60,370 nucleotides of DNA from a virus (IMGVR_UViG_3300036805_000098:1-60370); one strand, 5' to 3'. Shown: positions 6,305 to 49,791, counted from the stretch's first letter. Made by a program: numbers and translations. Notes: generated by a model from the letters alone, not told the origin.

Positions 6305-6879
6305 CGCAGAACCTCCAGTCCAGGGACATTGTCCCGCAGGATCGAGGCGATCTCCGCCGGAGGCAGGTTGTCCGTGTGCATCCAGGTCAGGTTGGCGTCG
6401 ACCGCCATGCGGTCCATGATGCGCTGCGCCCGGGTCGTCGCACCGCGCACCCAGCTCGGTGCCTGGTGGGAGTCGCGCTCCGCCCGGCGGGCATCGAGCG
6501 TGGTCGGCTGGCCGTCCAGGTGGATCAGGTGCACGGTGTACCCGGCCGCCCGTGCCGCGTGGAGGAAGCCCGCCGTCGCCAGCCGGGCGCCCTCGGCCAG
6601 TACGAGGCGGTGCGGCCGGGTGACGATCCACTCGACAGCCCGGGGCTGGATCGACATGCCGAGAGCATCGGTGCCGCTGAAGGCGTCGCGCCGTCGGCCG
6701 ATCTCCACGGCGACGTCGATGTTGGCGTCGGAGTCCGGGTCCTCGTTCGGCCGGACGAGCACGTCGTGCGGCACGGGGCCGAGGGCGGCGAGCCGGTCGC
6801 AATCGGCGGTGAGCGCCGCCATGACCGAGGACTTGCCGACACCGGGCGGGCCGACCAGGTACACGAGGTGGTACGTCAC
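6301..6879 (-). CDS. P-loop nucleotide kinase associated with DNA base modification
   Basis: GPPGVGKS Walker A, FSGTDAL and EGARL motifs; coupled to the TET/JBP gene. Confidence 0.75.
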   Translation of the reverse strand: MTYHLVYLVGPPGVGKSSVMAALTADCDRLAALGPVPHDVLVRPNEDPDSDANIDVAVEIGRRRDAFSGTDALGMSIQPRAVEWIVTRPHRLVLAEGARLATAGFLHAARAAGYTVHLIHLDGQPTTLDARRAERDSHQAPSWVRGATTRAQRIMDRMAVDANLTWMHTDNLPPAEIASILRDNVPGLEVLR

Positions 6880-9150: not shown

Positions 9151-9416
9151 TGTGAAGCTCCGACCGTGTGCTGGCGACCGGCCGAGCGGACCTCCCGGAG
9201 AGCGTCCTCACGGAAACGGTCACGCAGGTATCGCACGTCGTACGACCACCCGCACTCGCACGTCGCCCGTGCGGTGCCGCCCTGCTCTCCCTCCACGCCG
9301 AGGCGGGGGAGGTCTTCGCTGTGCGTGGCGTGTTCGACCTCGGCGCCGGTCGCGTGCTGCGCCTTGTCGGCGTCCTTGCCGGGCGCCGTGTCGGGGGTCT
9401 TCTTCGGCTCACTCAT
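9147..9416 (-). CDS. hypothetical protein
   Basis: RBS GGAGG before MSEPKK. Confidence 0.6.
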   Translation of the reverse strand: MSEPKKTPDTAPGKDADKAQHATGAEVEHATHSEDLPRLGVEGEQGGTARATCECGWSYDVRYLRDRFREDALREVRSAGRQHTVGASQ

Positions 9417-10089
9417 CGTCGTCCTCCTTGGGATCTGCGGCGTGCACGCGCAGGGCGTACAGCACCGTCTGCCCGGCGGTGAGGTCGTCGCCGTCACGCT
9501 CCCGGATCTGCGCGATCAGGGCGGCTGCCTCCTGCCGGTCGGCGAGCGACATCACGAGGATGAGTTCGGTGAACTCCCCGCCGTGGCGCGGCTCGTACCC
9601 TTCGACGCGCTCCCGGCGCGCCTGCTCCTCCTCGGGCGACTCCGCGTAGCGGGCGCCGGTCGGCTGCTCGGGCATCTCTGGCACCTGGTTGGTCAGGGCG
9701 AGCAGGTCGTCGAGGTCATCCGGGGTGTAGCCGGTGCCGTCCAGATCGTCGAGCGAGCCGAGCAGCGCCGCCAGCGCGGCGTCGTCGTAGCCACCGGAGT
9801 CCGGCAGCTTGTTGTCCACGAGATTGATCTTTTTCGCGGTGTTGTCGTCGCAGGCGATGATCTCCACGCGCGCCGTCTTGCGGCCGAGCTGCGCCAGGGC
9901 CGCCATCGTGTGGTTCCCGGCGAGCACGACCAGCGCGCCCTCGGTCGACTGCCGGACGATCAGCGAGCGGTACTGCCCATTCTCGGTGATCGACTCAGCG
10001 ATGGCGTCCACGTCACCGCGCCGGGCGTTGCCCGGGAAGGGCGCCAGCTCGCTCAGCGGAACTTCTTTGGTGCTCTTGTACTCGATCAT
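9409..10089 (-). CDS. ParB N-terminal domain protein
   Basis: PGNARRGD...SITENGQY...VLAGNHT...DNK motifs. Confidence 0.85.
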   Translation of the reverse strand: MIEYKSTKEVPLSELAPFPGNARRGDVDAIAESITENGQYRSLIVRQSTEGALVVLAGNHTMAALAQLGRKTARVEIIACDDNTAKKINLVDNKLPDSGGYDDAALAALLGSLDDLDGTGYTPDDLDDLLALTNQVPEMPEQPTGARYAESPEEEQARRERVEGYEPRHGGEFTELILVMSLADRQEAAALIAQIRERDGDDLTAGQTVLYALRVHAADPKEDDDE

Positions 10090-10304
10090 TCGAAGATCTC
10101 TTCCTGCTGGTCGATGATCACTGCGGGGAGCAGCCGGACGGGCCCGTGGACCGAGGCGGCCCACACCCCGCAGCCGGGACACACCGTCCGGTGAATCATC
10201 CCCCCGGTGGGCGAGGTTTCTGCGCCGGGCGCCGCCTGCCTGTCGACTACCTCGGGTACCGCCCGCTCATGAGCGCAGCTCACGACGTGCGATGCTTTGA
10301 TCAT
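10086..10304 (-). CDS. hypothetical protein
   Basis: Coupled ORF with CxxC. Confidence 0.55.
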   Translation of the reverse strand: MIKASHVVSCAHERAVPEVVDRQAAPGAETSPTGGMIHRTVCPGCGVWAASVHGPVRLLPAVIIDQQEEIFE

Positions 10305-10693
10305 TTATCTTTTCCTTCCTCGTATTTGCGGTACAGACCAACGGTGATCAGCGCGTGCCGCACGACGGATGCCGGGGCACCGCTGGCCCTCACGACCGCC
10401 TGCACCGCCCGCTCGAACTCGGAGTCCATCGGCCCCTCCATCAGCCTGCGGCACGCATGGGTCATGATCTCGTTGAACGTCCGCCCCGGCTGGGTGCGCT
10501 CCTCCTTCAGGATCTTCTCGGCCTGGTCCCGGGTGAGACCGGCGATCCGAGCCTGCTCGTAGTAGCAATCGACGTCGGCCGCCCGCCGTGCCAGTTCACC
10601 GAACGCGCTGCCCGACTTCCGCAGGTCCGAGGCGAGGCGGGCGAACCCCGCCGCCACCTCGGCCATCGTGTATCCGGGTGCCTTCATGGTCAT
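10301..10693 (-). CDS. hypothetical protein
   Basis: Coupled ORF, high GC3. Confidence 0.65.
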   Translation of the reverse strand: MTMKAPGYTMAEVAAGFARLASDLRKSGSAFGELARRAADVDCYYEQARIAGLTRDQAEKILKEERTQPGRTFNEIMTHACRRLMEGPMDSEFERAVQAVVRASGAPASVVRHALITVGLYRKYEEGKDK

Positions 10694-10917
10694 TTCTCCC
10701 GCAGTCGTCCGTAGGGGTTACCGGGGCGGCGGTAGGTCTGCTGCCCCGGAGGGTTGCCGATGTGGAAGCCGTCGCAGTGCCAGCAGTCGTAGATCACGAG
10801 CGCCCGGCGGCCCTGCCGGTGCAGGGCCTTCAGCGACTTCTTGGCCTGGCTCTTGGAGCGGTAGTAGCGCTTGGTGGTGCAGGCCACGTCCCGCTTGTCC
10901 GGGCTGAAGTTGATCAC
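10690..10917 (-). CDS. small basic Zn-binding hypothetical protein
   Basis: CTTKRYY...YDCWHCDGFH pattern; GTG overlaps the polymerase stop. Confidence 0.65.
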   Translation of the reverse strand: MINFSPDKRDVACTTKRYYRSKSQAKKSLKALHRQGRRALVIYDCWHCDGFHIGNPPGQQTYRRPGNPYGRLREK

Positions 10918-13900
10918 TTGGCCGACGCCTCCCCCCAGTCCCGGGCCGGACCGGTCGTGTCCGCCAGGATCGGCACGTTCTGCCAGGTCGTGGTGAACGC
11001 CGCCTTGACCACCGTCTTGATCTCCTCGGCCTGCTCCTCCGGGACACTCATCACGATCTCGTCGTGGACGAACGTCCGCAGGTACGGCCAGTACGCCTCG
11101 GGCAGCCGGAGCAGCGCGTCGCAGACCAGGTCCCTCGCACCACCCTGGCCCATGAGCGCCGGGGCCACGGTGTACGCCTGCTTCGGGTCGCACCGCATCA
11201 GCCGACCGAACCCGTTGTCCAGCAGCTCGCCGCGCCCACCCCGCTCGCGCACCTCCTCCCGCCACTCGATCAGCCGGGGGAAGCGCTCCTTCATCCCGTT
11301 GACGAACGCGTAGACGATCTCCGGGTCCGCACCGTCCCGGATCATCGCGTTGGCCCCGAGGCCGTAGTTCCAGCCGTGGCCCCGGGCCTTGGCGTCCTGA
11401 CGGCTGATCCCCAGCAGGTCGGCGATCTCCTGGTGAGCGTCGCGTCCAGGCTCGAAGAGCGCCATGTAGGCCGGGTCCTGGCAGTGACCGGCGATGGCCC
11501 GCATGTCGACCTGGCTCGCGTCGCAGGTGATCAGCACGTGGCCGTCGTCCGGAATGAAGATCGCCCGCTCCACGTGCTTCCCGGCGTGCTTGCCGTAGAC
11601 GGTCATGCCGGGCTTGGTCACGCTGGCCCGGCCCGACGCCTGCCGCATGCTCACCACCGGATGCACCCGGCCGTCGTCGCTCAGGTACGTCTTGGCCGTC
11701 TGGTAGACGGTCCGGGTGGTCGTCACGATCTCCATCAGGCTGAGCAGGTGCGCCAGCTCGGGCGGGCACTTCGGGTGCGAGGCGATCTTCCGCATCTCCT
11801 CGGCCTTGGTCGAGAGGTGGCCCTGCTCGGTACGCGGGGGCCGGGTGACGCCGTGCTCCTGCCAGAGGTTCTTCACCCAGGCGTTGCCCTCGGTCGTCGC
11901 CAGGGGCGACTTGGACGGCTCGAACACCTCGCGCTTGGCGGCGCCCCGGCCCCGCATGACCATCTTGCCGAGCGGGAGGCCCGCCGTATCGTGCAGCTCC
12001 TCCAGGGCAGCCGCCTTGCGCTCCTGGCCCTCGGTGTAGCGCTGCTCAAGCAGCTCCCGGTCCACCTTGAAGCCGTTCAGCGTCATCCGGCCCATCATGG
12101 CGAGGATCTTGTGCTCGCGCCGGGTGTAGTCGTTCTCCGGCAGGACGTTCCGGATGTGCTGCGACGCCTGCACGTCGCCCACCAGGTAGGCGTGGTAGTC
12201 GTGATCGTCCAGGGGGATCTGGTCGTAGCCACCGTGAATCTTCTTCAGCCGGGCGAGGTTGTCGGTCTTGCCGACGACCCCGTACCGCTCCGCCACGTGG
12301 TTCAGGTCGTAATCGTCGATCGAACCGTGGACCCGGCTGCGCGGGGGATGGGCCGCCCGGGACAGCGGGTCCGTGTCGGTGGCCTTGGCACAGAAGGCGC
12401 CCCAGTCCAGCCCGTGGTAGTACGCCAGCGCCAGGCCGTCGAAGCCGAGGATGTTGTGCCCGTAGACGGCATCCGCTTCGTTCAGCTTGGCCACGAGAGC
12501 GCCGATGTCCTTCCCGGTGGCGGTCTCCCCCTTCGCGTTGATCAGGCCACCGATCCGGATGAAGCCGGGCCCGTAGGTGAACAGCTTGTCGGCGTCGGCG
12601 CCCTCCAGGTCGAACCCGATCGGCCCGGCGGTGGCGTCGAACTCCGTGAGCGGGTCGACGGGGGACGGGGCGGGAGCCTGAACGGCCTCGGCCGCCACGG
12701 GGGGAGCCTCGGGCTCGGGTGCACTCACGGTGACGGGGGAGGGCACCTCGGGCACCTCATCCTCGAAGGGGTTGGCCGGAGGTCCGTCGTCGTTGGTTTC
12801 GATCATGCTTTCCTCATTTCCTTGATCGCTCTCAGGGCCGTTCCAAGATCGTGTACCGTCTGTACCGTCTGAATTGTTAACCCCTCGCGTATAGGGAGAG
12901 CTTTCGTTAACAGGTGCTGACGGTACAGGCAGTACATGATCTTGAGCAGTGGGGTTTTCCTGCGGTGACTCCGGAGAGTTACCTGGCGGGTTTCCGGGAT
13001 TTCCGAACGGCGAGTCGTCGATTCCACCCTCGGACGGATCGCCGATGCCATCCTCGTTGGTCTGGAACCGGACCCCGAGCCAGGCGTAGTAGCTGACTCC
13101 CGGATCGCTGTTGGGCCGAGTCGTCGACAGGCCGGGGCGGGACCTGATCCGCTTGCGTTCGACGTTGTTCTGGGTGCACAGATCGTGACCTCCGAACCGC
13201 GCCAGGAAGGTCTTGTCGCCCCACTCGTGGCCACCCTTGTCCCGCAGGAAGGCGTTGAACTTCTCGCGCAGCTCGGGGGAGATCACGTGCCGGTCGTGAT
13301 CGAACACGAGGTAGTCGGAGATGAAGTTGAGGATCGGGTCGCTCTCCATCCGCCATTCCCGCGTGTCGGCCACGATCTGCTCCGGCAGCTCGGGCATGAT
13401 CCGATTCAGCTCGTACCACCGCTGCGCCCCCACCACCATCCACGCGAGTGCCGCCTCGCGGACCCGGGGGTCCTCCTTGCAGCGCTCGCGCAGCGTCGGG
13501 TCACCGAGCCGGTCGTTCGGGCCCAGCACCTCGGCCGCCGTCTTCCGGTACGTGAAGGGGTACTTCACCAGGGCGAGACGGCGCCAGGTGCCGTGGTCGG
13601 TCTCGTCGACCATCGGCTTGTAGTTCGTGTTGACGAACAGCGAGTGCGTCGCCTCGAACACCACCGAGTCCTGCCGGATGCGCCGGGCGGAAATCTGCGG
13701 GGTGCCGGTGAGCTTCTTGAGCCGGTTGGTGTCGAGCCGACGGCTCTCGGGAGTCTCCTCCAGCACCGCGTACCGCACCCCCATGAAGTCCATCATCTCC
13801 GTGGGGTGGTTGTCGCTCGCACCCCCGAGCATCGCCCGGTCGCTGACCACGACGTGGTACCCGTTCTTCTTCTTGCCCGCCGCTCCGGCCAGGGCGTCGG

Positions 13901-15359
13901 CGATGGTCGTCTTGCCGTTGGAGCCACCCCCCCAGTTGATGATCGCGATGTCGTCCGGGGTCATGTAGCCGGTGAGCGCCTGCCCGGCCCGGAGCTGGTA
14001 CCAGTCGGCCACCTCGGGCGGCAGCGCGGTGAGCGCCAGGTCCCAGTCGGGGTGCTGCGCGCCCTTGACGTAGTCCTCTCCGCAGATGCGGGTCATGAGC
14101 TGGTCGGGGTCGTGCGGCTGGAGGGTTCCCGACCGCAGGTCGAGGATGCCGTTGGGACAGTTGAGCAGGTCCGGGTCAGCGTCGAAGTCGTCCGGCTTGC
14201 ACTCCAGCACGCCCCGCGCCAGCCGTACGAGCGACCCGAGGCGCCCGGCCGACAGCACCGACCTCCAGCCATCCATCTGGCTGCGCATGTCGCGGTTCGG
14301 GTCGACGCGCTGCCGGTCGAGCACGGCGTTGAACTGCTCCAGCGTCCACAGCCGGACCGCCTCGGTGACCGCCGCATCCGTCGCGGGCTCCCAGACCTTC
14401 CCGGTCCAGGTCATCCAGCCGAGGCCCGAGGCCCACCGGTACCGGCCATCGAGGTCTTCCGAGCAGACCGTGTCCGCCAGCACCGCATCGCTGAAAGCGG
14501 CATCCTTCGCACCATCGGCGGGCAGCTCCCGGCTGGAGGACGCACCGAGTTCTTCCAGCGTGCCCCCAGCGGCGAAGTAGTCGTCTACCCCCTTGACCGG
14601 CACTCCCCCGACCTCGGCCGGGATGATCAGGTACCAGACCCGCTGGGCGCCCTTGGACTCCAGCCACATGCCGAGGCGGCGCATGGCCATCATCACCGGC
14701 CGCTTGTCCCGGGCGTCGGAGTCGAAGCACACCACGACGTCCCGGCCCTGGATCGGGATGTCCTCCCAGTCGCCGAGCGTGCCCATCTTCGAGCGCCAGT
14801 TGAACACGCCCGTGAGCGTCAGCGCGGCCTTCCCCCGGCTGGCGAGGCAGTCGGCCTTCTTGACCCCCTCGGTGATCCAGAGCGGGTTGCTCGGGTCGCG
14901 GACGGCATCGCTGCACAGCGGAGGTACGTCGAGCCGGTTGGGGGTGCCTGCCTGGCTCGCGTACTTCTCCCGCTTGCCACCGGGCGCTTCCTGCGGAACG
15001 GCGGGCTTCCACTGGTAGCCGATGCGCTCTCCGGTGACCCGGTACATCGGGATCAGCAGCCCCGGGTACGCGCTGTCGTCGCGGTGGGCCCAGCGCGGAA
15101 TCCGGATCTCCTTGAGCCCGGCGCGCTCGTCGTCCGTTCCGGACAGCGTCCGGTACCCCCGGGCGGCGATGTGGTTGCGGTCGACGCAACTGCCGTTCAG
15201 TTCCGCGAGGTGCACCTCCGAGAGGTCGTCGAGGGTGACGGCCGCCGGGGGCGCCTCGGGCTCGCTGACGGCCTGCTCCGCCCCCGCCTCGGTACCGCTC
15301 TGTCCCGGACCGTCCGCCGGGTCGGCTCCGTACAGGAAGTCATTGATCGCATCGCTCAT
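10914..15359 (-). CDS. fused primase (DUF3854/Toprim-like) - D5/SF3 helicase - family A DNA polymerase
   Basis: WITEGVKKAD and CFDSD primase motifs; GGGSNGKTT and DHGTWRRL helicase motifs; FDLE and HNILGFD exonuclease motifs; polymerase motifs DASQVDMR, KARGHGWNYG, VHDE in one ORF. Confidence 0.9.
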   Translation of the reverse strand: MSDAINDFLYGADPADGPGQSGTEAGAEQAVSEPEAPPAAVTLDDLSEVHLAELNGSCVDRNHIAARGYRTLSGTDDERAGLKEIRIPRWAHRDDSAYPGLLIPMYRVTGERIGYQWKPAVPQEAPGGKREKYASQAGTPNRLDVPPLCSDAVRDPSNPLWITEGVKKADCLASRGKAALTLTGVFNWRSKMGTLGDWEDIPIQGRDVVVCFDSDARDKRPVMMAMRRLGMWLESKGAQRVWYLIIPAEVGGVPVKGVDDYFAAGGTLEELGASSSRELPADGAKDAAFSDAVLADTVCSEDLDGRYRWASGLGWMTWTGKVWEPATDAAVTEAVRLWTLEQFNAVLDRQRVDPNRDMRSQMDGWRSVLSAGRLGSLVRLARGVLECKPDDFDADPDLLNCPNGILDLRSGTLQPHDPDQLMTRICGEDYVKGAQHPDWDLALTALPPEVADWYQLRAGQALTGYMTPDDIAIINWGGGSNGKTTIADALAGAAGKKKNGYHVVVSDRAMLGGASDNHPTEMMDFMGVRYAVLEETPESRRLDTNRLKKLTGTPQISARRIRQDSVVFEATHSLFVNTNYKPMVDETDHGTWRRLALVKYPFTYRKTAAEVLGPNDRLGDPTLRERCKEDPRVREAALAWMVVGAQRWYELNRIMPELPEQIVADTREWRMESDPILNFISDYLVFDHDRHVISPELREKFNAFLRDKGGHEWGDKTFLARFGGHDLCTQNNVERKRIRSRPGLSTTRPNSDPGVSYYAWLGVRFQTNEDGIGDPSEGGIDDSPFGNPGNPPGNSPESPQENPTAQDHVLPVPSAPVNESSPYTRGVNNSDGTDGTRSWNGPESDQGNEESMIETNDDGPPANPFEDEVPEVPSPVTVSAPEPEAPPVAAEAVQAPAPSPVDPLTEFDATAGPIGFDLEGADADKLFTYGPGFIRIGGLINAKGETATGKDIGALVAKLNEADAVYGHNILGFDGLALAYYHGLDWGAFCAKATDTDPLSRAAHPPRSRVHGSIDDYDLNHVAERYGVVGKTDNLARLKKIHGGYDQIPLDDHDYHAYLVGDVQASQHIRNVLPENDYTRREHKILAMMGRMTLNGFKVDRELLEQRYTEGQERKAAALEELHDTAGLPLGKMVMRGRGAAKREVFEPSKSPLATTEGNAWVKNLWQEHGVTRPPRTEQGHLSTKAEEMRKIASHPKCPPELAHLLSLMEIVTTTRTVYQTAKTYLSDDGRVHPVVSMRQASGRASVTKPGMTVYGKHAGKHVERAIFIPDDGHVLITCDASQVDMRAIAGHCQDPAYMALFEPGRDAHQEIADLLGISRQDAKARGHGWNYGLGANAMIRDGADPEIVYAFVNGMKERFPRLIEWREEVRERGGRGELLDNGFGRLMRCDPKQAYTVAPALMGQGGARDLVCDALLRLPEAYWPYLRTFVHDEIVMSVPEEQAEEIKTVVKAAFTTTWQNVPILADTTGPARDWGEASAK

Positions 15360-15360
15360 C

Positions 15361-15858
15361 TCAGCCCTGCTCTCCATGCTCGAACCGGGCGCTGCGCGCT
15401 GCGGTCAGTGCGTCGTCGTAGACGGCTCCGAACGTCGATGGTCCCCCACCCTGCGGGTGAACCGTCGCCAGCATCGCCTGCTCCGGGTCGGTCATCACCC
15501 ACTCGGCCTCACCGGTCGTCGGCCGGGTCAGCAGCCATGCCGTTCCGGCTCCGCGCCGCCGGGGGATGTCGCCCGAGAAGATCACCAGGGGCGCCACGTA
15601 GAGGTTGATCTCCGAGGCCACGGTGAACTCCCGGGTGTCGGGCATACCACCCTTCACCTCCACGTAGAAGACCGGCACGTCGTCCCGCCCGGTGTTGATC
15701 CGGAAGTCGGGCAGGTACCGGCCACTGGGCAGGTCGTACCCCTGCGGCTCGAACTCCCACCGGATCTCCATGTGGTCGAAGGCGACCGCCCACCTCGCCT
15801 CCAGGCGGCTGCGGAACCGGCAGCCCGCATACCGTGTCTCGATCGCGTGCACGGCCAT
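15361..15858 (-). CDS. PD-(D/E)XK nuclease-like protein
   Basis: FRSRLEARWA...YLPDF...YVEVKG. Confidence 0.75.
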   Translation of the reverse strand: MAVHAIETRYAGCRFRSRLEARWAVAFDHMEIRWEFEPQGYDLPSGRYLPDFRINTGRDDVPVFYVEVKGGMPDTREFTVASEINLYVAPLVIFSGDIPRRRGAGTAWLLTRPTTGEAEWVMTDPEQAMLATVHPQGGGPSTFGAVYDDALTAARSARFEHGEQG

Positions 15859-15865
15859 GGCGGCC

Positions 15866-16075
15866 TCAGCTCGCGGACCGGGTGGGGACCACCGGAACCG
15901 CTACGACCGGAGTCAGCAGACCGTCCAGTTCCTTGACGCTGATGCGGGTGAAGCCCCGGCCGGGGCCGACCTTGTACCGCGTGAGGTCGCCCTCGCGCAG
16001 CCACCGGTAGATCGTCTGCTGGTTGCGGTGAGCCCGCTCGCAGGCTTCCTTGATCGTGATGTATCCGTCTTCCAT
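15866..16075 (-). CDS. excisionase-like HTH DNA-binding protein
   Basis: ITIKEAC...QTIYRWLREGDL; RBS GGAGG; borders the divergence point. Confidence 0.75.
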   Translation of the reverse strand: MEDGYITIKEACERAHRNQQTIYRWLREGDLTRYKVGPGRGFTRISVKELDGLLTPVVAVPVVPTRSAS

Positions 16076-16171
16076 GGCCGTCCTCCGGCTAAGTGGTGGG
16101 CCTTCACGATAGCGTGTTGCGTAACGGTAAGCTATCGTGGAAGACCCCGAATGAGGAACTGGAGATCGATC

Positions 16172-16636
16172 ATGACCATGGAGCAATGCCCCGGCGAGCG
16201 GGGCGAGACCCACGTCTGCCTGCCGGTCGCCGTCGGCCCCCGCGCCGGTATCCGGTGCCTGCTGTGCAACATCCCGATCGAGCCCGACCCCCGGGTGGGC
16301 TCCCGGCCGTCGATCAACACCGAGGCGACCACCGCTGCGATCAACGCCCGGGGAGCGCGGTGCAACCGCTGCAGGCACTGGACGTTCCGCCCGGCGCGCC
16401 CGGTCGGCTCCGGCATCGCGCAGCTTCCCGCCTTCTGCGCCAACTGCACGGACCTCGGCACCGGGTCGCCCCGGGTCGTCTCCGTTCAGCGCGCCGACAA
16501 CATGCTGGTCCAGGGCCGCACCGATACCCGGGAGGCCCAGCACCTGATCCAGTTCTCGAAGGCGTTCCCGGGCTACTGCTCCGATGGGACCTGCGGGCAC
16601 TGCGGTGCCTGTGAGCTGCGGAAGGAAGGATTCTGA
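16172..16636 (+). CDS. Cys-rich hypothetical protein
   Basis: RBS GGAG, several CxxC motifs. Confidence 0.6.
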   Translation: MTMEQCPGERGETHVCLPVAVGPRAGIRCLLCNIPIEPDPRVGSRPSINTEATTAAINARGARCNRCRHWTFRPARPVGSGIAQLPAFCANCTDLGTGSPRVVSVQRADNMLVQGRTDTREAQHLIQFSKAFPGYCSDGTCGHCGACELRKEGF

Positions 16637-16638
16637 CC

Positions 16639-17112
16639 ATGCCGTCCCAGTGGAAGTCGAAGACCTACGCACCTCCGGGCGTCACGTTCTCCCCCGAGGC
16701 GTTCGCGGACCGGGTCGGCCGGACGACCGACGGCTGCACGATCGTTGCTGCTGTCGTCGCCGAGGACGGCCGCTCGGTGGAACTCACCCTGGAGACGGAC
16801 CGGGAGCCCGTGGCGATGACGTCCGGGGGCGTTCCGGTGTACTCCATCGGCGTTCCGCCCCACCTCGCTTCCAGCGAGGTCCCCGCCCGTGATCCGGCCG
16901 CCACCCTGCTGCTGAAGGGTCTCACTCAGGCGAGTGCGCTGGGCTGGCGGACGATCTCCGTCCAGCGCCTGAAGCGGCTCGCCAATGGCGACGCCACCGC
17001 GCTGCCGAGGCGGGGGGAGCCCTCGGGCCGTATCTGCGTCGACCCGCGTTGCCCGGCCGGGCGCGCCCACTACGGCGCCTGCCCCGGACCGCACCGGAAG
17101 GACCCCTCGTGA
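16639..17112 (+). CDS. hypothetical protein
   Basis: RBS GAAGGA, coupled to helicase. Confidence 0.6.
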   Translation: MPSQWKSKTYAPPGVTFSPEAFADRVGRTTDGCTIVAAVVAEDGRSVELTLETDREPVAMTSGGVPVYSIGVPPHLASSEVPARDPAATLLLKGLTQASALGWRTISVQRLKRLANGDATALPRRGEPSGRICVDPRCPAGRAHYGACPGPHRKDPS

Positions 17113-18776
17113 CCGCCGCGACGCTGCACCTGCGCGACTACCAGACCGACTGCTTCCGGGAGGTCTGGAGCGCGTGGGCCCGGCGCATCCAGCGTCCGGC
17201 CGTCGTCCTGCCGACCGGCTCCGGCAAGACCGTCGTCTTCGCCCACATCGCCCGGGAGTTCGCCGACATCGGCCGGGCCTGCCAGACCCCGCACCGGGTC
17301 GTCATCCTGGTGCACCGCGACGAACTCGCCGACCAGGCCATCGACAAGATCCGCACGGTCGCACCGGACCTGAGCGTCGGCAAGGTCAAGGCGGCCGACA
17401 ACGAGGTGGGCGCCGACGTCCTGGTCTGCTCGGTGCAGACCCTCGTCCGGGAGCGCCGCCTGAACGACCTCCTGGGGTCGCAGTCGTACGCAGGGCAGAT
17501 CGGCCTCGTCATCGTGGACGAGGCGCACCACGCCGCTGCCGCCAGCTACCAGACGATCCTGCGAGGACTGGGCTGCTTCACCGGTCTCGCCAACGACGAC
17601 GTCCACACCGGAACCCGGACCCTCGGGGTCACCGCGACGATGGCCCGGGGAGATGGCGTTGGCCTCGGTGACACCTGGCAGGAGGTCGTCTTCCAGCGCT
17701 CCACGCTCTGGATGATCAGCCGGGGGTACCTGGTCGACGTGCGCGGCAAGGCCGTCGACCTGGAGGGGCTGGACCTGTCGGGCGTCAAGCGCTCCGGTGG
17801 CGACTACCAGGCGAAGGATCTCGGCCGCGCCATGATCGAGGCCCACGGGCCCGAGGTCGTCGCCCGTGCGGTGCAGGTCTACGCTCCCGACCGGCGGCCG
17901 ATCGTCTTCCTCCCGGACGTCGCCAGCGCGCACGCCACCACGGCCGAGCTGGTCAAGGCGGGCATCCCCGCTGCCACGGTCGACGGCACGACCTCCCGTG
18001 AGGACCGGCTGGAGATCTACCGCCGGTACCGCACCGGCGAGCTGCGGGCGATCGTCAACTGCATGGTGCTGACCGAGGGCGCCGATTTCCCGTGGGCGGA
18101 CTGCGTCGTCAACGCCCGGCCGACGACCAACCCGACCCTCTACATCCAGATGGTTGGCCGGGGCCTGCGCCCGTGGCCGGGCAAGACCGACTGCCTGGTG
18201 CTGGACGTGACCGGCGCCGGGGGTCGCCTGTCCACGCTGATCGACCTGGCCCCGGGCGAGGTGAGCAGTTTCCGGGCGGGGGAGTCGCTGGCCGAGGCGG
18301 CCGTGCGCGAGGTGGCCGAGGGCGACGCCACCGTGGAGGCCGAGAACCTGGCCTTCAACCTCAAGCACCGGGAGCTGGACCTGTTCAGCGCGTCGTCGCA
18401 CGCCTGGCTGCGGACGCCTGCTGGGGTCATGTTCATCCCGGTGGCCAACGAGTTCGTCTTCCTCTGGCCGGACGCCGACGGTCACTGGGCGGTCTGCTAC
18501 GCGGCGGGGCGCCGGGGGTGGAACCGGCTGCACCGGGGCCTCCAGCTCGGTACCGCGATGGCCTGGGCGGAGACCGAGGCCGAGGAGCGGATGCCCTTCA
18601 ACGGCACGAAGTCGGCCGACTGGCGGAAGCGCCGGGCCGAGCCCCGGCAGATCGCCATGGCGCGCAGCTACCGGGTCCCGATCGGCGACGACCCCCGCAA
18701 GGGTGCCCTCTCCGACGGCATCAGCATCGCCAAGGCGGCCGACCTGTTCGACGATCACATGAGGAGAGCGAAGTGA
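17109..18776 (+). CDS. SF2 DExH helicase
   Basis: LRDYQ, PTGSGKT, DEAHH, TAT, QMVGRGLR motifs. Confidence 0.92.
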   Translation: MTAATLHLRDYQTDCFREVWSAWARRIQRPAVVLPTGSGKTVVFAHIAREFADIGRACQTPHRVVILVHRDELADQAIDKIRTVAPDLSVGKVKAADNEVGADVLVCSVQTLVRERRLNDLLGSQSYAGQIGLVIVDEAHHAAAASYQTILRGLGCFTGLANDDVHTGTRTLGVTATMARGDGVGLGDTWQEVVFQRSTLWMISRGYLVDVRGKAVDLEGLDLSGVKRSGGDYQAKDLGRAMIEAHGPEVVARAVQVYAPDRRPIVFLPDVASAHATTAELVKAGIPAATVDGTTSREDRLEIYRRYRTGELRAIVNCMVLTEGADFPWADCVVNARPTTNPTLYIQMVGRGLRPWPGKTDCLVLDVTGAGGRLSTLIDLAPGEVSSFRAGESLAEAAVREVAEGDATVEAENLAFNLKHRELDLFSASSHAWLRTPAGVMFIPVANEFVFLWPDADGHWAVCYAAGRRGWNRLHRGLQLGTAMAWAETEAEERMPFNGTKSADWRKRRAEPRQIAMARSYRVPIGDDPRKGALSDGISIAKAADLFDDHMRRAK

Positions 18777-36090: not shown

Positions 36091-36145
36091 CTGTGAGGCC
36101 CCGTGTGAGGACCCTGTGATTGGGGCCGTGTGAGCGGCCCTGACC
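36091..36145. repeat. short TGTGA(G) direct repeats downstream of traB, candidate clt locus
   Basis: CTGTGAGG, GTGTGAGG, CTGTGATT, GTGTGAGC within about 45 bp. Confidence 0.45.
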
Positions 36146-36234
36146 ATAGGTATTCGCGTTCAGTTCACAAGATCGAAAAGGGTCTCCTGTGTCACACGGC
36201 AGAGGGCGCCCGGGAGCGGAGAAGGAGAGCGGAG

Positions 36235-36666
36235 ATGAGCACTGGATTCCCGGCGCCCGAGGGCGACCGGCAGAGGATGGCCGAGCTGGCCGAGTACGTC
36301 CGGGGAGAGATCGTTTCGCGCGGCGGTGATCTTGGCCAGACCAAGATCGAACTTCACTACCACGCGGCCCCGGTGAAGATCGACACGGCGCCGGTCGACG
36401 CCTCGGCCGGAGACGCCGTCCTGGCGAAGTACACGCCGTACTTCATCGTCCTTCTCGGGGGCGTGGTCATCCTCGCGTGCGTAGGCGTGGTGACGGTTCT
36501 CCTGCTGCCCGCCCTGCTCACGATGGTGACCATGATCGCGGTGGTGATGGGCGGCTTCGCCGTGATGTCCATCGCGGTCGCCGCCTCGGTCAAGAGCCTG
36601 AAGCAGTCGGCGAGTGACCGGGACGTGGTCCGGCAGGCGGTGAAGGGTGGCCGTCGGCGCCGCTGA
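36235..36666 (+). CDS. SpdD-like membrane protein
   Basis: Two long TM segments, basic C-terminus, follows traB. Confidence 0.5.
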   Translation: MSTGFPAPEGDRQRMAELAEYVRGEIVSRGGDLGQTKIELHYHAAPVKIDTAPVDASAGDAVLAKYTPYFIVLLGGVVILACVGVVTVLLLPALLTMVTMIAVVMGGFAVMSIAVAASVKSLKQSASDRDVVRQAVKGGRRRR

Positions 36667-36699: not shown

Positions 36700-36722
36700 G
36701 GCCCCCTCGGGGGCCTTTTTTC
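36700..36722 (+). terminator. rho-independent terminator
   Basis: GGCCCCC-TC-GGGGGCC followed by a T run. Confidence 0.85.
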
Positions 36723-36779
36723 ATGATCAGATTACCTTAACTTTACCAAGTATTTCTATCGCCCCAGGTCAGAGCCCTG

Positions 36780-36830
36780 CCTAAAGTTTGCGATCTTATC
36801 CCATGGGGCGTACCTTTGGGGTAGTTCGAA
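36780..36830 (+). promoter_or_regulatory. variant of the repeated early-like promoter
   Basis: CTAAA...TACCTTTGGGGTAGTTC resembles the TACTTTTGGGGAAGTTC family. Confidence 0.55.
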
Positions 36831-37175
36831 AGCACGGCGGGGCCAAGCGGTAAGGCCCTCGGGAAACCACCGGGAACCCGGTGAGGCCCAAACGGCGCAA
36901 GTCGCCACCGGAGACAGGGCACCGACCCTCCACAAGAAAACGGCAGGCGAGTTCAGCAGCGGAAACGCTGCCTGGGGACGGGCCTTGATCAGCCGAGGAC
37001 ATACGGCACTGACTGATCACTGCGAGCACACATCCAGGCGGGGTAAGCGCGAGGGGCGAACCGACGGCACAGACGACCCAACGGAGCCAACCGGCGGTGC
37101 CCCTAGGCGCCCCTGATGGGACTTAGCCCGGAGGGTCGGGAGCACGACCCGCACGACACAGCACGTAAGTAGACA

Positions 37176-37276
37176 GCCGAAACACCCGGCCGGACGGTTC
37201 GCTCGTACCTCTAAACGATGCATAACCGACCGGGTGTCGGCGGGGATGGCCTCCCCGCCCTGACGAGGCAGGCCAC
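37176..37276 (+). ncRNA. type II hammerhead ribozyme 1 (extended stem III)
   Basis: GCC-GAAA-CACCCGG...CCGGGTG-TC-GGCGGGG-ATGGCCT-CCCCGCC-CTGACGA-GGC-AGGCCA; predicted cleavage after 37238. Confidence 0.9.
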
Positions 37277-37294
37277 ACGGACTTAGGAGCCGAC

Positions 37295-37555
37295 ATGCCG
37301 ACCTACACGATCAAGTACAACGCAGGCACGAACCACATCGAGGGTGTCGCCATCCGCACCGAGAGCACCGGGACCGAGAGCGGCGGCGTTGTCGCCGACT
37401 ACTCGCTGAGCGCCTGCGGGGCACTGACCCGGGGCCGGTTCGCCACGGGCCGGAGCTTCACCGACCTGACCGAGGCGCTGCGGATCGCCCGCCTCGGCCG
37501 CCGCAAGGTGTGCCGCACCTGCGAGAAGGCCGCACTCGCCGAGATCGAGAGCTGA
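37295..37555 (+). CDS. hypothetical protein, ribozyme-flanked
   Basis: AGGAG RBS, CRTC. Confidence 0.75.
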   Translation: MPTYTIKYNAGTNHIEGVAIRTESTGTESGGVVADYSLSACGALTRGRFATGRSFTDLTEALRIARLGRRKVCRTCEKAALAEIES

Positions 37556-37557
37556 GA

Positions 37558-37626
37558 GCCGAAACGGCGCCCTCCGGGGCGCCGTCGGCGGGGGCTGGCC
37601 GCCCCGTCCTGACGATGGCAGGCCAC
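37558..37626 (+). ncRNA. type II hammerhead ribozyme 2
   Basis: Full core GAAA / GTC / CTGACGA(T) with stems I-III; predicted cleavage after 37586. Confidence 0.85.
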
Positions 37627-37645
37627 ACGGACATAGGAGCCGATC

Positions 37646-37864
37646 ATGTCGATGACCCGCAAGCACTTCGTCGCCTTCGCCCAGATCATCGCGGCCGAGG
37701 TCGCCGAGGCGAACGAACTCACCCCGGTCCGCCGGAACGCCGCGCTGCGGACGCTGCGCAGCACCGCTCGGGCGATGGCCCGGGAGTTCGCCTACGACAA
37801 CCGGAACTTCGACCGGGCGCGGTTCATGGACGCGTGCGGACTCGGGGACCCCAACGGCAACTGA
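37646..37864 (+). CDS. hypothetical protein, ribozyme-flanked
   Basis: MTRKHFVAFA...DNRNFDRARFMDAC; AGGAG RBS. Confidence 0.75.
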   Translation: MSMTRKHFVAFAQIIAAEVAEANELTPVRRNAALRTLRSTARAMAREFAYDNRNFDRARFMDACGLGDPNGN

Positions 37865-37870
37865 TCAACA

Positions 37871-37939
37871 GCCGAAACGGCGTCCTCCGGGGCGCCGTCG
37901 GCGGGGGCTGGCCGCCCCGTCCTGACGATGGCAGGCCAC
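37871..37939 (+). ncRNA. type II hammerhead ribozyme 3
   Basis: Same core; predicted cleavage after 37899. Confidence 0.85.
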
Positions 37940-37958
37940 ACGGACATAGGAGCCGATC

Positions 37959-38135
37959 ATGCCGTATGGGACCCTCTGCCCCAAGTGCGGGCACCCGGAG
38001 ACCGACTACAACAACAGCGACCCCGAGCAGTGCGGCGGCTGCCGCAACCGGGCGTTCCGCGCTTCACACGGGGGCGTCGACCGGGTGACCGACTTCCTGT
38101 TCCCGGGACTCAAGAACCTCTATCCGACCGACTGA
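37959..38135 (+). CDS. 58-aa Zn-ribbon-like protein, ribozyme-flanked (absent from the ORF track)
   Basis: MPYGTLCPKCGH...QCGGCRN...PTD stop; AGGAG RBS. Confidence 0.7.
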   Translation: MPYGTLCPKCGHPETDYNNSDPEQCGGCRNRAFRASHGGVDRVTDFLFPGLKNLYPTD

Positions 38136-38200
38136 GCCGAAACGGCGCCCCGGCGCCGTCGGCGGGGGCTGGCCGCCCCGTCCTGATGATGGCAGGCCAC
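38136..38200 (+). ncRNA. type II hammerhead ribozyme 4
   Basis: CTGATGA(T) core, shortened stem III; predicted cleavage after 38160. Confidence 0.85.
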
Positions 38201-38218
38201 ACGGACATAGGAGCCGAC

Positions 38219-38398
38219 ATGATCGTTACCCCCGACATGATCGAAGCGCTGCGGACTCTCCGGCTCGCAAGCCGGACGGGTCTCGGCCTGGACGGTGCGG
38301 CTCGGGAGGCGTTTGACACCTTGGACAACCAGGGAGCATTCGCCGAGATCGACATCACCACCGGATACGAGATCTTCAGCGACGAGGATTTTCAGTGA
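38219..38398 (+). CDS. hypothetical protein
   Basis: AGGAG RBS after ribozyme 4. Confidence 0.65.
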   Translation: MIVTPDMIEALRTLRLASRTGLGLDGAAREAFDTLDNQGAFAEIDITTGYEIFSDEDFQ

Positions 38399-38700
38399 CG
38401 GTACCGACCCTCTACCACGGGACGGCCGAGGCGTTCGCCCCGGGCGACACCGTCGACCCCTCGTACGAGCTGGGAGCGCGGCGCGGCCGGGCGTTCGTCT
38501 ACGCGACGACCGACCCGGACGTTGCCCGCAACTACGCCCGGCACAAGGCGTGGGTCAAGGGGATGTTCGAGGAGGACGTGAGGGCCCGGACGTACGAGGT
38601 ACGGCCGACCGGCCCCGTGGAACCGGACGACACCGTAGACGGCCGTTTCGCCGCCTGGAGGACCCGGCGGCCGATGGAGGTCGTGCGGGAGCTTCCGTAA
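38395..38700 (+). CDS. Arr-like ADP-ribosyltransferase
   Basis: LYHGT...PGD...VYAT...YEVRPTG.VEPD...WRTRRPMEVV resembles the Arr family pattern. Confidence 0.65.
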   Translation: MTVPTLYHGTAEAFAPGDTVDPSYELGARRGRAFVYATTDPDVARNYARHKAWVKGMFEEDVRARTYEVRPTGPVEPDDTVDGRFAAWRTRRPMEVVRELP

Positions 38701-38768
38701 CGATCGGGACTCGATTTAACTAAATCGGTCGTCGGTCTCACCTTCTTCCCCTACTTTTGGGGAAGTTC
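38698..38768 (+). promoter_or_regulatory. repeated promoter/operator copy A
   Basis: TAACGATCGGGACTCGATTTAACTAAATCG...TACTTTTGGGGAAGTTC. Confidence 0.75.
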
Positions 38769-38859
38769 ACCAGGAAGGCGCCGGGACGAGGTCACTACGT
38801 TGACCGACCGGCAACGGGGTCGCAACCGGCGCCTTCCGCCCCGAGTCGAGGAGCACACC

Positions 38860-38985
38860 ATGGGAACGATCTTCGAATCCGCCAAGCGCGCCGTCAACCG
38901 GCTCGCGAAGACCTTCACCTGCCCCCGCTGCGGGGCGCCGCTCACCGCTGCGGGCCACTGCTCGCAGACGTGCGGCGGGATCTGA
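38860..38985 (+). CDS. 41-aa Zn-ribbon protein
   Basis: GAGGAG RBS, CPRC...CSQTC. Confidence 0.65.
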   Translation: MGTIFESAKRAVNRLAKTFTCPRCGAPLTAAGHCSQTCGGI

Positions 38986-38987
38986 GA

Positions 38988-39056
38988 GCCGAAACGGCGC
39001 CCTCCGGGGCGCCGTCGGCGGGGGCTGGCCGCCCCGTCCTGATGATGGCAGGCCAC
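38988..39056 (+). ncRNA. type II hammerhead ribozyme 5
   Basis: Same core; predicted cleavage after 39016. Confidence 0.85.
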
Positions 39057-39105
39057 ATGCAGACGCCGACCGACCGGGGCGGCGCCCAGCAGAAGGAGAA
39101 AGATC

Positions 39106-40251
39106 ATGCAGATCAACCTGCGGAACAGCAACCTCGACGGTCTCGTCAACGAGCTGACCGAGCAGCGCGACCGCAAGCAAGACCTGATCGTCCCCGCGCG
39201 GGACCTCTGGTCCCACGAGGGCCGGGTGTTCGTCCGGGGCGCCGGTGAGCCGGTGCTCACCGCCGACGGCGTCACCACGGGCAACCTGGAGTTCGCCCCG
39301 TCCGACGTCTACGACGAGGGAGCGGCGGCCAAGCTCGGGTTCCCCCGGGCGTACCTCCGCACGCTGCGGTCGTCCGGCCGGTCGGACCTGATCGACCAGA
39401 ACCTCAACGGCCTGCTCCACGGGAACAAGAACCTGGAGGTGCCCGGCGACACCCGGCGCTTCATGCTCCGGACGTTCAAGGGCCAGGACGGCGGGCTGGG
39501 CATGGCCCGCGCGCTGCTGTCCGACTCGTACCGCACCATCGACAACTGGGACGTCCTGATGGCGACCCTGGAGGGCATGCAGGCGGCCGGACTGGACGCG
39601 CACGTCGTGCGGCAGGCCGATCTCACCAACCGCCGGATGTACGTCCAGATCGTCGCCCCCGAGGTCCAGGCGCTCGCGCCCGAGCTGCTGAAGGACTACC
39701 GCTCGCCCTTCTCGGGCAACCGGGGCGCCGACAACCCGACCATGTTCGCCGGGTTCGTGGTCAGCAACAGCGAGACCGGCGGCGGGGCGTTCACGATCAC
39801 GCCGCGCCTGGAGATCCAGATCTGCACCAACGGCATGACGATCACGCAGGACGCCGTGAGCCGTCGGCACCTCGGCTCGAAGCTGGAAGAGGACGGCGTC
39901 GTCCGCTACAGCGACGAGACCCAGGCGAAGAACCTGGAGCTGATCAAGCTCCAGACCCGGGACGCGGTCCGGACCTTCCTGGACGTCGACTACATGAACA
40001 AGGTGATCACCCGGGTCACCGAGAAGGCGGGCCGCCCGGTCAGCCGCCCGGAGGAGATCGTCAAGACGGTCGTCAAGCGCGAGGCGTACACCAAGGAGGA
40101 CGCCGAGGGCATCCTCGCGCACTTCATCAAGGGCTCGGACATGACGCACGGCGGCGTCTTCCAGGCCATCACCAGCTACGCGCAGACCGTCGACAACGCG
40201 GACCGCGCCTACGCCATGGAGGCGGACGCCCTCGCGGCGGCCGGTCTCTGA
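39106..40251 (+). CDS. DUF932/DUF945-like phage protein
   Basis: RALLSDSY, SNSETG, ICTNG, RRHLG motifs. Confidence 0.7.
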   Translation: MQINLRNSNLDGLVNELTEQRDRKQDLIVPARDLWSHEGRVFVRGAGEPVLTADGVTTGNLEFAPSDVYDEGAAAKLGFPRAYLRTLRSSGRSDLIDQNLNGLLHGNKNLEVPGDTRRFMLRTFKGQDGGLGMARALLSDSYRTIDNWDVLMATLEGMQAAGLDAHVVRQADLTNRRMYVQIVAPEVQALAPELLKDYRSPFSGNRGADNPTMFAGFVVSNSETGGGAFTITPRLEIQICTNGMTITQDAVSRRHLGSKLEEDGVVRYSDETQAKNLELIKLQTRDAVRTFLDVDYMNKVITRVTEKAGRPVSRPEEIVKTVVKREAYTKEDAEGILAHFIKGSDMTHGGVFQAITSYAQTVDNADRAYAMEADALAAAGL

Positions 40252-40360: not shown

Positions 40361-40429
40361 GATCGCGCAGCTTGATGGCCGAGCGCCCCGACGGGGGAGG
40401 TGCGGGTTCGAATCCCGCCGCGATCACCA
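40361..40429 (+). ncRNA. tRNA-like RNA with truncated anticodon arm
   Basis: Acceptor GATCGCG/CGCGATC + ACCA, D arm, T arm GCGGG-TTCGAAT-CCCGC; anticodon arm only CCCC-GACG-GGGG. Confidence 0.75.
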
Positions 40430-44359: not shown

Positions 44360-44614
44360 ATGAACAGCATCGACAGCATCGCCACCCTCGCCGCTCAGAT
44401 CATCTGCCTCTCCCCCGAGGCCGTCGCCGAGGCGACGATGCTCCGGGGCGTCTACGCCAACGCGTCGACCAACGACGGCCGGTGCCGGGTGGCCGAGGTC
44501 GCCCGCAACCTGGCGGCGGTCCGGGCCAACTCGGACGAGGAGGGCTTCACGGCCGAGGCGTACATGGACATCGTCCTGCGGGACCTGCGCACCGCGCGGG
44601 GCGACTACCGCTGA
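44360..44614 (+). CDS. hypothetical protein
   Basis: Leader ACACGGACCTAGGAGCCGATCATG closely matches the ribozyme-cassette leaders. Confidence 0.7.
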   Translation: MNSIDSIATLAAQIICLSPEAVAEATMLRGVYANASTNDGRCRVAEVARNLAAVRANSDEEGFTAEAYMDIVLRDLRTARGDYR

Positions 44615-44618
44615 TCGA

Positions 44619-44682
44619 GCCGAAACGGCGCTCCGGCGCCGTCGGCGGGGAATGGCCGCCCCGTCCTGATGATGGCAGGCCG
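44619..44682 (+). ncRNA. type II hammerhead ribozyme 6
   Basis: GCC-GAAA-CGGCGC-TCCG-GCGCCG-TC-GGCGGGG-AATGGCCG-CCCCGTC-CTGATGA-T-GGC; predicted cleavage after 44643. Confidence 0.85.
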
Positions 44683-44701
44683 ACAGATCAGGAGAATGAT
44701 C

Positions 44702-45028
44702 ATGGACGTTCTGGTTCCCCGTCAGTTGATCGAGGACACGCTGGACAGCATCGGCCTGGACCCGGAGAGCGACCTGCGGGCCGACTACGGCGGCCGGAAC
44801 ATGTACGGCGCGACCTGCCTCGGCATCGTGTGCTCGCTGGCCGAGTATGGCGCCTTCCTCGTGGAGCTGTCGCACGCCTACTCCGAGAACGAGGACATGG
44901 AGTCCGACTTCGCGCAGGACTTCGCCCAGCGGGCCCGCTCGGACAGCATGGGCCGAGGCGAGATCTTCTACTTCCCGGGCGTCAAGCTCGAAGCCGAGGA
45001 CGACGACTCGGCCGACGTGGAAGACTGA
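44702..45028 (+). CDS. acidic hypothetical protein
   Basis: YGGRNMYGATCLGI...DSMG...YFPG; AGGAG RBS. Confidence 0.7.
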   Translation: MDVLVPRQLIEDTLDSIGLDPESDLRADYGGRNMYGATCLGIVCSLAEYGAFLVELSHAYSENEDMESDFAQDFAQRARSDSMGRGEIFYFPGVKLEAEDDDSADVED

Positions 45029-45108: not shown

Positions 45109-45179
45109 GCTCCCATGGGGTAATGGATGCCCGGCGGCTTCTCAAGCCGCAGATGCCGGATCGTGACCGGCTGGGAGCA
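45109..45179 (+). tRNA. tRNA-Glu(CUC)-like with atypical T loop
   Basis: Complete cloverleaf, anticodon loop TT-CTC-AA, T loop ATCGTGA. Confidence 0.7.
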
Positions 45180-45297: not shown

Positions 45298-45370
45298 AGG
45301 TCCGTAGTCCAACTGGAAGGGCGCCCGCCTCCAAAGCGGGACGATGTCGGTTCGAGCCCGGCCGGACCTG
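45298..45370 (+). tRNA. tRNA-Trp(CCA)
   Basis: Cloverleaf, CT-CCA-AA, GGTTCGAGCCC. Confidence 0.88.
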
Positions 45371-49118: not shown

Positions 49119-49190
49119 GGGTTCTTAGCTCAGTCGGAAGAGCAGCCGGTTGAAGCCCGGCGCGCACAGGTTCGATCCCTGTAGAGCCCA
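49119..49190 (+). tRNA. tRNA-Phe(GAA)
   Basis: Cloverleaf, TT-GAA-GC, GGTTCGATCCC. Confidence 0.85.
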
Positions 49191-49200
49191 CGCAAGACGA

Positions 49201-49274
49201 TCTCCCGTAGCTCAGTCGGTAAGAGCGGCGCCCTGTTAAGGCGACGGTCGCAGGTTCGAGCCCTGCCGGGAGAG
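49201..49274 (+). tRNA. tRNA-Asn(GTT)
   Basis: Cloverleaf, CT-GTT-AA. Confidence 0.9.
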
Positions 49275-49629: not shown

Positions 49630-49702
49630 GCCCCGGTAGCTCATCAGGTAGAGCGGCTGCCTCGTAAGCAGCAGGCGACAGGTTCAAGTCCTGTCCGGGG
49701 CT
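49630..49702 (+). tRNA. tRNA-Thr(CGT)
   Basis: Cloverleaf, CT-CGT-AA. Confidence 0.9.
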
Positions 49703-49718
49703 CGCAGGACAACAGCAC

Positions 49719-49791
49719 GCGCCCGTAGCTCAGTTGGCAGAGCTGGGGATTCTTAATCCCTGAGTCGCCGGTTCGAGTCCGGCCGGGCGTA
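49719..49791 (+). tRNA. tRNA-Lys(CTT)
   Basis: Cloverleaf, TT-CTT-AA. Confidence 0.9.

Follow-up and report, generated by a model that had tools for sequence, protein, structure and literature searches.

Six type II hammerheads in a phage genome record

The DNA examined here, IMGVR_UViG_3300036805_000098, is a virus record of 60,370 bases from IMG/VR (68.5% GC; completeness estimated at 73%), and the whole of this stretch is hereafter called the window. It carries six type II hammerhead ribozymes with intact catalytic cores, set between small genes on the + strand. The nearest DNA matches to the window are Streptomyces phages, and its other genes include a large terminase, a fused primase-family A polymerase, DNA-hypermodification enzymes, and a GH25 lysin; we read the source as most probably an uncultivated Streptomyces-type lytic phage.

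Just 5′ of the array, a terminator-like hairpin at 36700-36715 (+; six pairs, all G-C, then a T-run) ends an upstream gene block that includes the open reading frame (ORF) 36130-36666, which makes it probable that the transcript with the ribozymes begins a short way 3′ of the hairpin. Between this hairpin and hammerhead 1 lie about 400 nucleotides (nt) of non-coding sequence, in which a conserved leader or non-coding RNA occupies 36760-37174 (+) with an invariant core at 36908-36946. The hammerheads then follow on the + strand: hammerhead 1, with a 56-nt helix III, at 37175-37277 (42.2 bits; cut 37238/37239); hammerhead 2 at 37557-37627 (52.1 bits; cut 37586/37587); hammerhead 3 at 37870-37940 (52.5 bits; cut 37899/37900); hammerhead 4 at 38135-38201 (57.0 bits; cut 38160/38161); and hammerhead 5 at 38987-39057 (54.8 bits; cut 39016/39017), 5′ of a conserved gene for a 381-amino acid (aa) protein (39106-40251). 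Hammerhead 6 (44618-44684; 56.4 bits; cut 44643/44644) stands further downstream, between ORF 44360-44614 and ORF 44669-45028.

The bit scores given above are those of the six matches to Hammerhead_II (RF02276) found at Rfam gathering thresholds, every one on the + strand (42.2-57.0 bits against a cut-off of 37 bits; E-values 3.8e-9 to 2.8e-5), and the same family had no match in any of 14 control genomes. A 36-nt core pattern occurs three times in the window and a 27-nt leader pattern four times, with 0.00 expected from shuffled sequence in both cases (100 shuffles for the core pattern). The cuts were placed with a custom descriptor built from GAA, helix III in closed form, U-H, helix I likewise closed, CUGANGA, and at least 2 base pairs (bp) in helix II; it finds all six copies and sets the first base 3′ of the cut at 37239, 37587, 37900, 38161, 39017, and 44644. 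Each copy has CUGA[C/U]GA, GAAAC, and a GUC cleavage triplet without any weakening substitution. Helix I (7-8 bp) and helix III (7-9 bp) are closed, and helix II is open, its strands being GCC and GGC (3 bp) in all six. As read from the sequences, loop I can also pair with the 3′ tail, UGGCC with GGCCA over 5 bp in hammerheads 1 to 5 and GGCC over 4 bp in hammerhead 6. The hairpins on the two sides of the cut are predicted to be stable, at -12.0 to -23.4 kcal/mol for helix III and -12.1 to -16.0 kcal/mol for helix I, and hammerhead 1 has -23.4 and -16.0 kcal/mol, respectively.

The ribozymes delimit single-gene units

The original prediction for this DNA divided the region into three RNAs running from one cleavage site to the next, and the descriptor-placed cuts reproduce these exactly: unit 1 at 37239-37586 (348 nt), unit 2 at 37587-37899 (313 nt), and unit 3 at 37900-38160 (261 nt), all on the + strand. 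Each was said to hold one ribosome-binding site and one complete ORF, and a single AGGAG is indeed found 5-6 nt 5′ of an ATG in each of the three. Unit 1 opens with the helix I hairpin, continues with AGGAG (37285-37289) and an ORF of 86 aa (37295-37555), and closes with the helix III hairpin of hammerhead 2. Unit 2 has AGGAG at 37635-37639 and an ORF of 72 aa at 37646-37864; unit 3 has AGGAG at 37948-37952 and an ORF of 58 aa with two CxxC pairs at 37959-38135, whose TGA stop extends onto the first base of hammerhead 4. Third-position GC of the three ORFs is 0.93, 0.95, and 0.90, respectively, which is coding-like.

The claim that every unit starts with the 3′ half of one ribozyme and ends with the 5′ half of the next agrees with the located cuts and the helix geometry. 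So does the near-identity of the copies: when compared from helix II through to the start codon, hammerheads 2 and 3 agree at 88 of 89 positions, and hammerhead 4 agrees with either at 83 of 84. Because the GCC and GGC strands of helix II are identical in all six copies, joined unit ends would, as predicted, restore a complete hammerhead sequence.

The small proteins have few relatives. For the unit 1 ORF a 60%-identical relative was found in the N-terminal part of gp95 of Streptomyces phage Wentworth, and no relative was found among viral contigs. Three homologues of 72-75 aa (44-64% identity) were obtained for the unit 2 ORF; the homologue search with the unit 3 ORF gave only the window's own protein. 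No match to the unit 2 or unit 3 ORF was found among GenBank phages, and no Pfam or PHROG family was matched by any of the three.

A further frame was considered in unit 3 and rejected. If the 261 nt were closed into a hypothetical circle, one frame would run round it without a stop, with an AUG inside CUGACGAUGG in the ribozyme core. We take this endless frame as chance: the bases at its third positions are those that stand second in the codons of the real ORF, with a GC of 0.51; its AUG has no preceding Shine-Dalgarno motif; and, as a rough estimate, about 1/6 of 87-codon frames would be open at such GC.

The next unit, unit 4 (38161-39016, +; 856 nt), contains three ORFs, at 38219-38398 (59 aa), 38395-38700 (101 aa), and 38861-38985 (41 aa). 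Nearly all of the 101-aa protein (+) is covered by a match to Pfam Arr-ms, the rifampin ADP-ribosyltransferase family (E 5.1e-8; 33.5 bits, with the cut-off at 25), and the GTG at which the protein starts overlaps the stop codon of ORF 38219-38398.

Type II hammerheads as stop-to-start spacers

A pattern scan of IMG/VR gave at least 146 stretches, flanks were taken for 80 of them, and the cultured Streptomyces phage Salutena and the window were added. In this set the descriptor recognizes 216 ribozymes, 179 of them distinct, and 92 distinct neighbouring pairs; these and all survey counts below are among the matches listed. Please note that the scan pattern favours one subfamily, and that the descriptor catches 11 of the 12 Salutena copies, so that a ribozyme missed by it may lie between some of the "neighbours".

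A Shine-Dalgarno motif, a start codon, and an ORF of at least 30 codons follow within 70 nt (median 27) of 168 of the 179 distinct ribozymes, and an ORF stop precedes 166 of the 179 within 60 nt (median 7); at 3000 random positions the corresponding values are 35% for the start and 50% for the stop. The window ribozymes behave in the same way: all are co-directional with the genes, and each spans the interval from 1-6 nt after a stop codon, or overlapping it, to the next AGGAG. The type II hammerhead element is, in other words, a stop-to-start spacer. Loop I can pair over at least 4 bp with its own tail in 95 of the 179 ribozymes, compared with 62 when the tail is a random one, and the median stabilities of the end hairpins are -12.7 kcal/mol for helix III and -13.0 kcal/mol for helix I.

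Salutena has 12 RF02276 matches in intergenic gaps at 37.9-47.4 kb, 11 of them over the cut-off, and the ten that were compared with neighbouring features all lie directly 5′ of an annotated ribosome-binding site. A 57-kb viral contig (G001) has 24 RF02276 matches within 7.6 kb (9932-17520, -), mostly 220-450 nt apart, and a second viral contig has 20. A scan of genome contigs with a strict ribozyme pattern returned one unrelated Firmicute locus. Taken with Salutena and the contigs with 20-24 copies, the window shows that phages of Streptomyces-like hosts commonly carry arrays of this kind.

A conserved leader RNA upstream of hammerhead 1

The invariant core of the leader, about 36 nt long (36908-36946), is common to seven IMG/VR stretches and to the Streptomyces phages Wentworth and Rooney. 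In six of nine distinct loci a type II hammerhead lies 190-310 nt 3′ of this core and is followed by a Shine-Dalgarno motif and a start codon. Three of these leader-linked hammerheads have G at core position 7 (CUGAGGA), namely those of L153 (Wentworth, about 8000-8070), L157, and L161; they satisfy the descriptor, and Rfam did not report them at gathering thresholds or at E≤0.1. One hairpin of the leader shows compensatory changes, and the leader itself matched no Rfam family at E≤1.

Probable processing into linear, hairpin-capped messages

Taken together, the array probably cleaves a long + strand transcript, which covers an accessory or early gene block of the phage, into individual linear mRNAs, of which three are single-gene. 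The upstream product of each cut would end in the stable helix III hairpin plus one base, carrying a 2′,3′-cyclic phosphate, and the downstream product would begin with a 5′-OH directly in the helix I hairpin paired with the 3′ tail, after which a constant leader of about 30 nt with AGGAG would follow. Since helices I and III are closed hairpins flanking the cut, both product ends would be hairpin-capped, and such ends would be poor substrates for 5′-end-dependent RNases and 3′ exonucleases. Every cassette would receive an identical 5′ end and a constant setting for its ribosome-binding site, independent of the sequence upstream, i.e., it would be insulated, and the stability and translation of neighbouring genes would be uncoupled. 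Hammerhead 1 would in addition detach the conserved non-coding leader of about 400 nt, and the ribozyme-plus-leader repeats would probably double as portable junctions in the gain and loss of accessory genes.

In vivo cleavage, the chemistry of the ends, stabilization with any effect on half-life, and insulation are predictions here, and several points weigh against them. The stabilizing effect of 5′-OH and hairpin ends in Streptomyces is extrapolated from the general behaviour of RNase E/J and of 3′ exonucleases. The control values for the start (35%) and the stop (50%) are high, because GC-rich DNA has many long open frames. The closest relatives carry no hammerheads at this locus, and the conserved genes can therefore do without the ribozymes. 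It is our view that these points call for caution without displacing the processing of a long transcript into linear messages as the probable role of the array.

The comparative results yield functional predictions: a stop-to-RBS (ribosome-binding site) spacer, hairpin-capped ends, mixed helix II types, and a leader RNA cut off by hammerhead 1. Salutena is a harmless phage in culture, and processing, mRNA stability, and the idea of circular messages discussed below are directly testable there.

Accessory-gene turnover and a recombination-junction alternative

Two related contigs encode the 381-aa protein at 72% and 77% identity and keep its flanking genes. In both, the genes corresponding to 36130-36666 and 39106-40251 are syntenic; both lack all small genes of the block that sits between them in the window (36.7-39.1 kb), and neither has a hammerhead within 6 kb. 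Similarity to the closest relative contig, L152, ends inside hammerhead 1 (37222) and returns at 39056, the end of hammerhead 5. In one contig a relative of the unit 2 gene has a hammerhead on either side, and in another contig it has none; a relative of ORF 44360-44614 adjoins the 381-aa gene in L151. These differences in gene content place the array in an accessory region that changes fast, and cassette junctions may be a second role of the repeats.

One could go further and suppose that the near-identical repeats of about 90 nt serve the swap, duplication, and loss of cassettes in the first place, with RNA cleavage being secondary. The near-identity of hammerheads 2, 3, and 4 around unrelated genes, the absence of the block from both syntenic relatives, the two breakpoints with L152, and the shifting company of the unit 2 gene and of ORF 44360-44614 would all fit. 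But repeats alone need no intact catalytic core, yet all six cores and their helices are intact, and the covariation of helix II across phages (described below) reveals that the RNA fold is under selection. At the boundaries, similarity to L152 is also confined to short matches (21-56 nt). Moreover, such a role is an evolutionary one, compatible with RNA processing. As the primary explanation we therefore regard it as unlikely.

A separate observation concerns L152, which is free of hammerheads and has seven copies of a different repeat of about 50 nt in equivalent intergenic places (5490-5516, 5920-5946, 7608-7634, 7914-7940, 8719-8745, 9171-9197, and 10939-10965). The repeat can be drawn as a three-way junction with one covarying helix, and may take over the function of the ribozyme there. 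It is absent from the window, it matched no Rfam family at E≤5, and its exact core occurs in that contig only; a looser pattern hit nine stretches of other contigs, which were rejected as all were chance-like and lacked the other helices of the element.

Proposed circular messages

The original prediction went beyond the anatomy of the units and proposed that the phage may make small circular coding RNAs. In this scheme doubly cut units would be sealed, by hammerhead reversal or by host RtcB, into small exonuclease-resistant circular mRNAs translated from the internal ribosome-binding site. The topology permits it: a unit is the 3′ half of one ribozyme plus the 5′ half of the next, with matching helix II strands. 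Hammerhead-flanked repeats do yield circular RNAs in plants and animals, i.e., retrozymes (PMC7761336, PMC7229834), and in Escherichia coli RNAs of 83-103 nt have been circularized by hammerheads with a cited efficiency of 6.7-9.5% (PMC11592204). A host ligase is possible because rtcB is reported to be expressed in at least one Streptomyces isolate (PMC7181669) and some actinobacteriophages encode RtcB-like ligases. If true, engineered ribozyme-assisted circular RNAs would have a natural parallel in bacteria.

The geometry is less favourable. The cut of a type II hammerhead separates helix III, all of it on the 5′ side, from helix I and its tail pairing, both entirely on the 3′ side, which leaves helix II as the sole contact between the halves; a 3-bp helix II alone would then bridge the ends over a coding loop of 200-290 nt. 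Folding predictions for units 1 to 3 give this bridging helix a probability of 0.0004-0.003, a value that speaks neither for nor against circles, since the same model gives about 0 for intact ribozymes. A rebuilt, fully active hammerhead would re-cut the circle. The units are protein-coding and have stop codons, without the non-coding, highly paired architecture of viroids or retrozymes. RtcB is encoded in none of six hammerhead-rich phage records: PF01139 was not found at E≤1 in the 73%-complete window, nor was RtcB found in Salutena or in four contigs with 24, 20, 8, and 6 hammerhead matches. Spliced or circular products were sought in the prophage arrays of 2011 and were not detected, in data not shown and in other arrays than this one (PMC3088659).

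The comparison of helix II between neighbours also bears on this. Among the matches listed, helix II covaries between ribozymes (GGC/GCC, GCC/GGC, GAC/GUC, GC/GC, and others) and reaches at least 2 bp within its own ribozyme in 215 of 216 cases. The helix that would close a unit, i.e., the 3′ strand of the left ribozyme paired with the 5′ strand of the right one, is reduced to 1 bp in 14 of the 92 pairs (36% under random pairing) and in 8 of 70 units shorter than 1000 nt. Salutena has three units with incompatible helix II, two of them single-gene; at the L049 locus of contig G001, ten ribozymes (nine neighbouring pairs) were parsed, with a helix II of 2 bp in all. Arrays thus mix helix II types, and rebuilding a hammerhead is not a conserved requirement; selection retains helix II inside a ribozyme and not the compatibility of neighbours, and the units of the window are compatible because their copies are near-identical. 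A sequencing-run search for the stretch returned three soil metagenome runs, none listed as RNA.

The anatomy of the original prediction therefore stands, i.e., the cuts, the one-ORF units, the half-ribozymes, and the rebuildable ends. The circular coding RNAs drawn from it are left without support, given the products not detected in the 2011 arrays, the mixed helix II types, and the lack of RtcB in the six phage records. We hold the sealing route itself to be quite improbable, and it is similarly hard to expect that a fraction of units is sealed in infected cells into circular mRNAs of 261-348 nt which outlast linear phage and host messages.

Conditional cleavage and relics as possible alternatives

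Cleavage could also be conditional, with cutting dependent on Mg2+, on temperature, or on ribosomes stopped 1-6 nt upstream, and would then set the timing or the ratio of expression. The stop codon 1-6 nt before the ribozyme, or overlapping it, is so near that the 5′ strand of helix II, together with part of helix III, would lie under a terminating ribosome, and a salt-tuned halovirus variant is discussed in Perreault et al. 2011 (PMC3088659). Against this, the cores of the window are consensus ones without weakening substitutions, no ligand-binding or sensor domain is attached, and the tandem arrays of 2011 cut efficiently during transcription (PMC3088659). We find such control highly doubtful. 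Weakest of all is the notion of inactive relics or chance look-alikes, which could appeal to the window copies being known from their sequence only, but which six matches of 42-57 bits as opposed to none in 14 control genomes, the presence of every core base, and a placement the same as in the 179 relatives make extremely improbable.

Other genes of the window

Seven tRNA genes lie on the + strand in the same block as the array, at 40361-40426, 45109-45179, 45298-45370, 49119-49190, 49201-49274, 49630-49702, and 49719-49791; the one at 45109 comes from a permissive scan only, though with 53.1 bits. tRNA genes in this block would supply extra processing sites. On the - strand, a P-loop nucleotide kinase 3 (PF18751, 1.7e-36) at 6301-6957 and an amino acid:DNA transferase (PF18724, 7.8e-14) at 7901-9001 together suggest hypermodified DNA bases, and a 1487-aa protein at 10914-15377 (-) fuses DUF3854, a D5_N primase-helicase, and a family A DNA polymerase.

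Comparison with known systems

In Cluster K mycobacteriophages, start-associated sequences form a conserved repeat directly 5′ of many start codons; these are short DNA/RNA motifs with no ribozyme. The layout described here has been known since 2011, and the finding alone would not surprise a specialist. Multiple hammerheads that flank single genes or short gene blocks of varying identity were described in prophages by Perreault et al. 2011, PLoS Comput Biol (PMC3088659), where three tandem arrays were cleaved at every ribozyme in vitro and one in vivo, and processing into single-gene mRNAs was proposed. The circular idea is not new either: the same paper names cleavage plus ligation as a possible route to spliced or circular products and states that neither was detected (data not shown). 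A 2019 review (PMC6765202) repeats the processing proposal and treats the role of thousands of phage and bacterial hammerheads as open. Our literature search found no paper on hammerheads native to Streptomyces phages, the sole pairing of "hammerhead" with "Streptomyces phage" being about aminoglycosides, and nothing on circular RNAs from phage hammerhead arrays beyond the remark of 2011.

With the prophage arrays of Perreault et al. 2011, as far as that paper describes them, the window shares type II hammerheads with loop I/3′ tail pairing that are clustered, co-directional, and flank varied single genes in a phage context. It differs in the host group, which is new, i.e., a Streptomyces-type lytic phage, with 12 copies in Salutena; in a repeat that includes a fixed leader with a ribosome-binding site; and in a first ribozyme that follows a conserved non-coding RNA. 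The closest engineered likeness is the synthetic hammerhead insulator RiboJ, which raises expression of the gene behind it (PMC6206723). In both cases a hammerhead directly 5′ of the ribosome-binding site removes upstream RNA, or would do so here, and leaves a 5′ hairpin; RiboJ, however, was engineered from a satellite-RNA ribozyme plus an added hairpin, whereas the window has natural type II hammerheads repeated between genes.

Retrozymes, viroids, and satellite RNAs share with the window the tandem hammerheads that bound a unit, the 5′-OH and 2′,3′-cyclic-phosphate ends (predicted here), and the two ribozyme halves (PMC7761336, PMC7229834, PMC6765202). That hammerhead repeats give rise to circular RNAs is established for the retrozymes of plants and animals and for viroid-like agents (PMC7761336), but not for phage arrays. 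As these sources describe them, the retrozyme, viroid, and satellite RNAs use type III or type I hammerheads, are non-coding and highly paired, and have their ends joined in eukaryotic cells by tRNA ligase or RtcB, their circles serving replication or retrotransposition. In contrast, the hammerheads of the window are type II, and its units are protein-coding with unrelated inserts and would be bridged by a helix of 3 bp.

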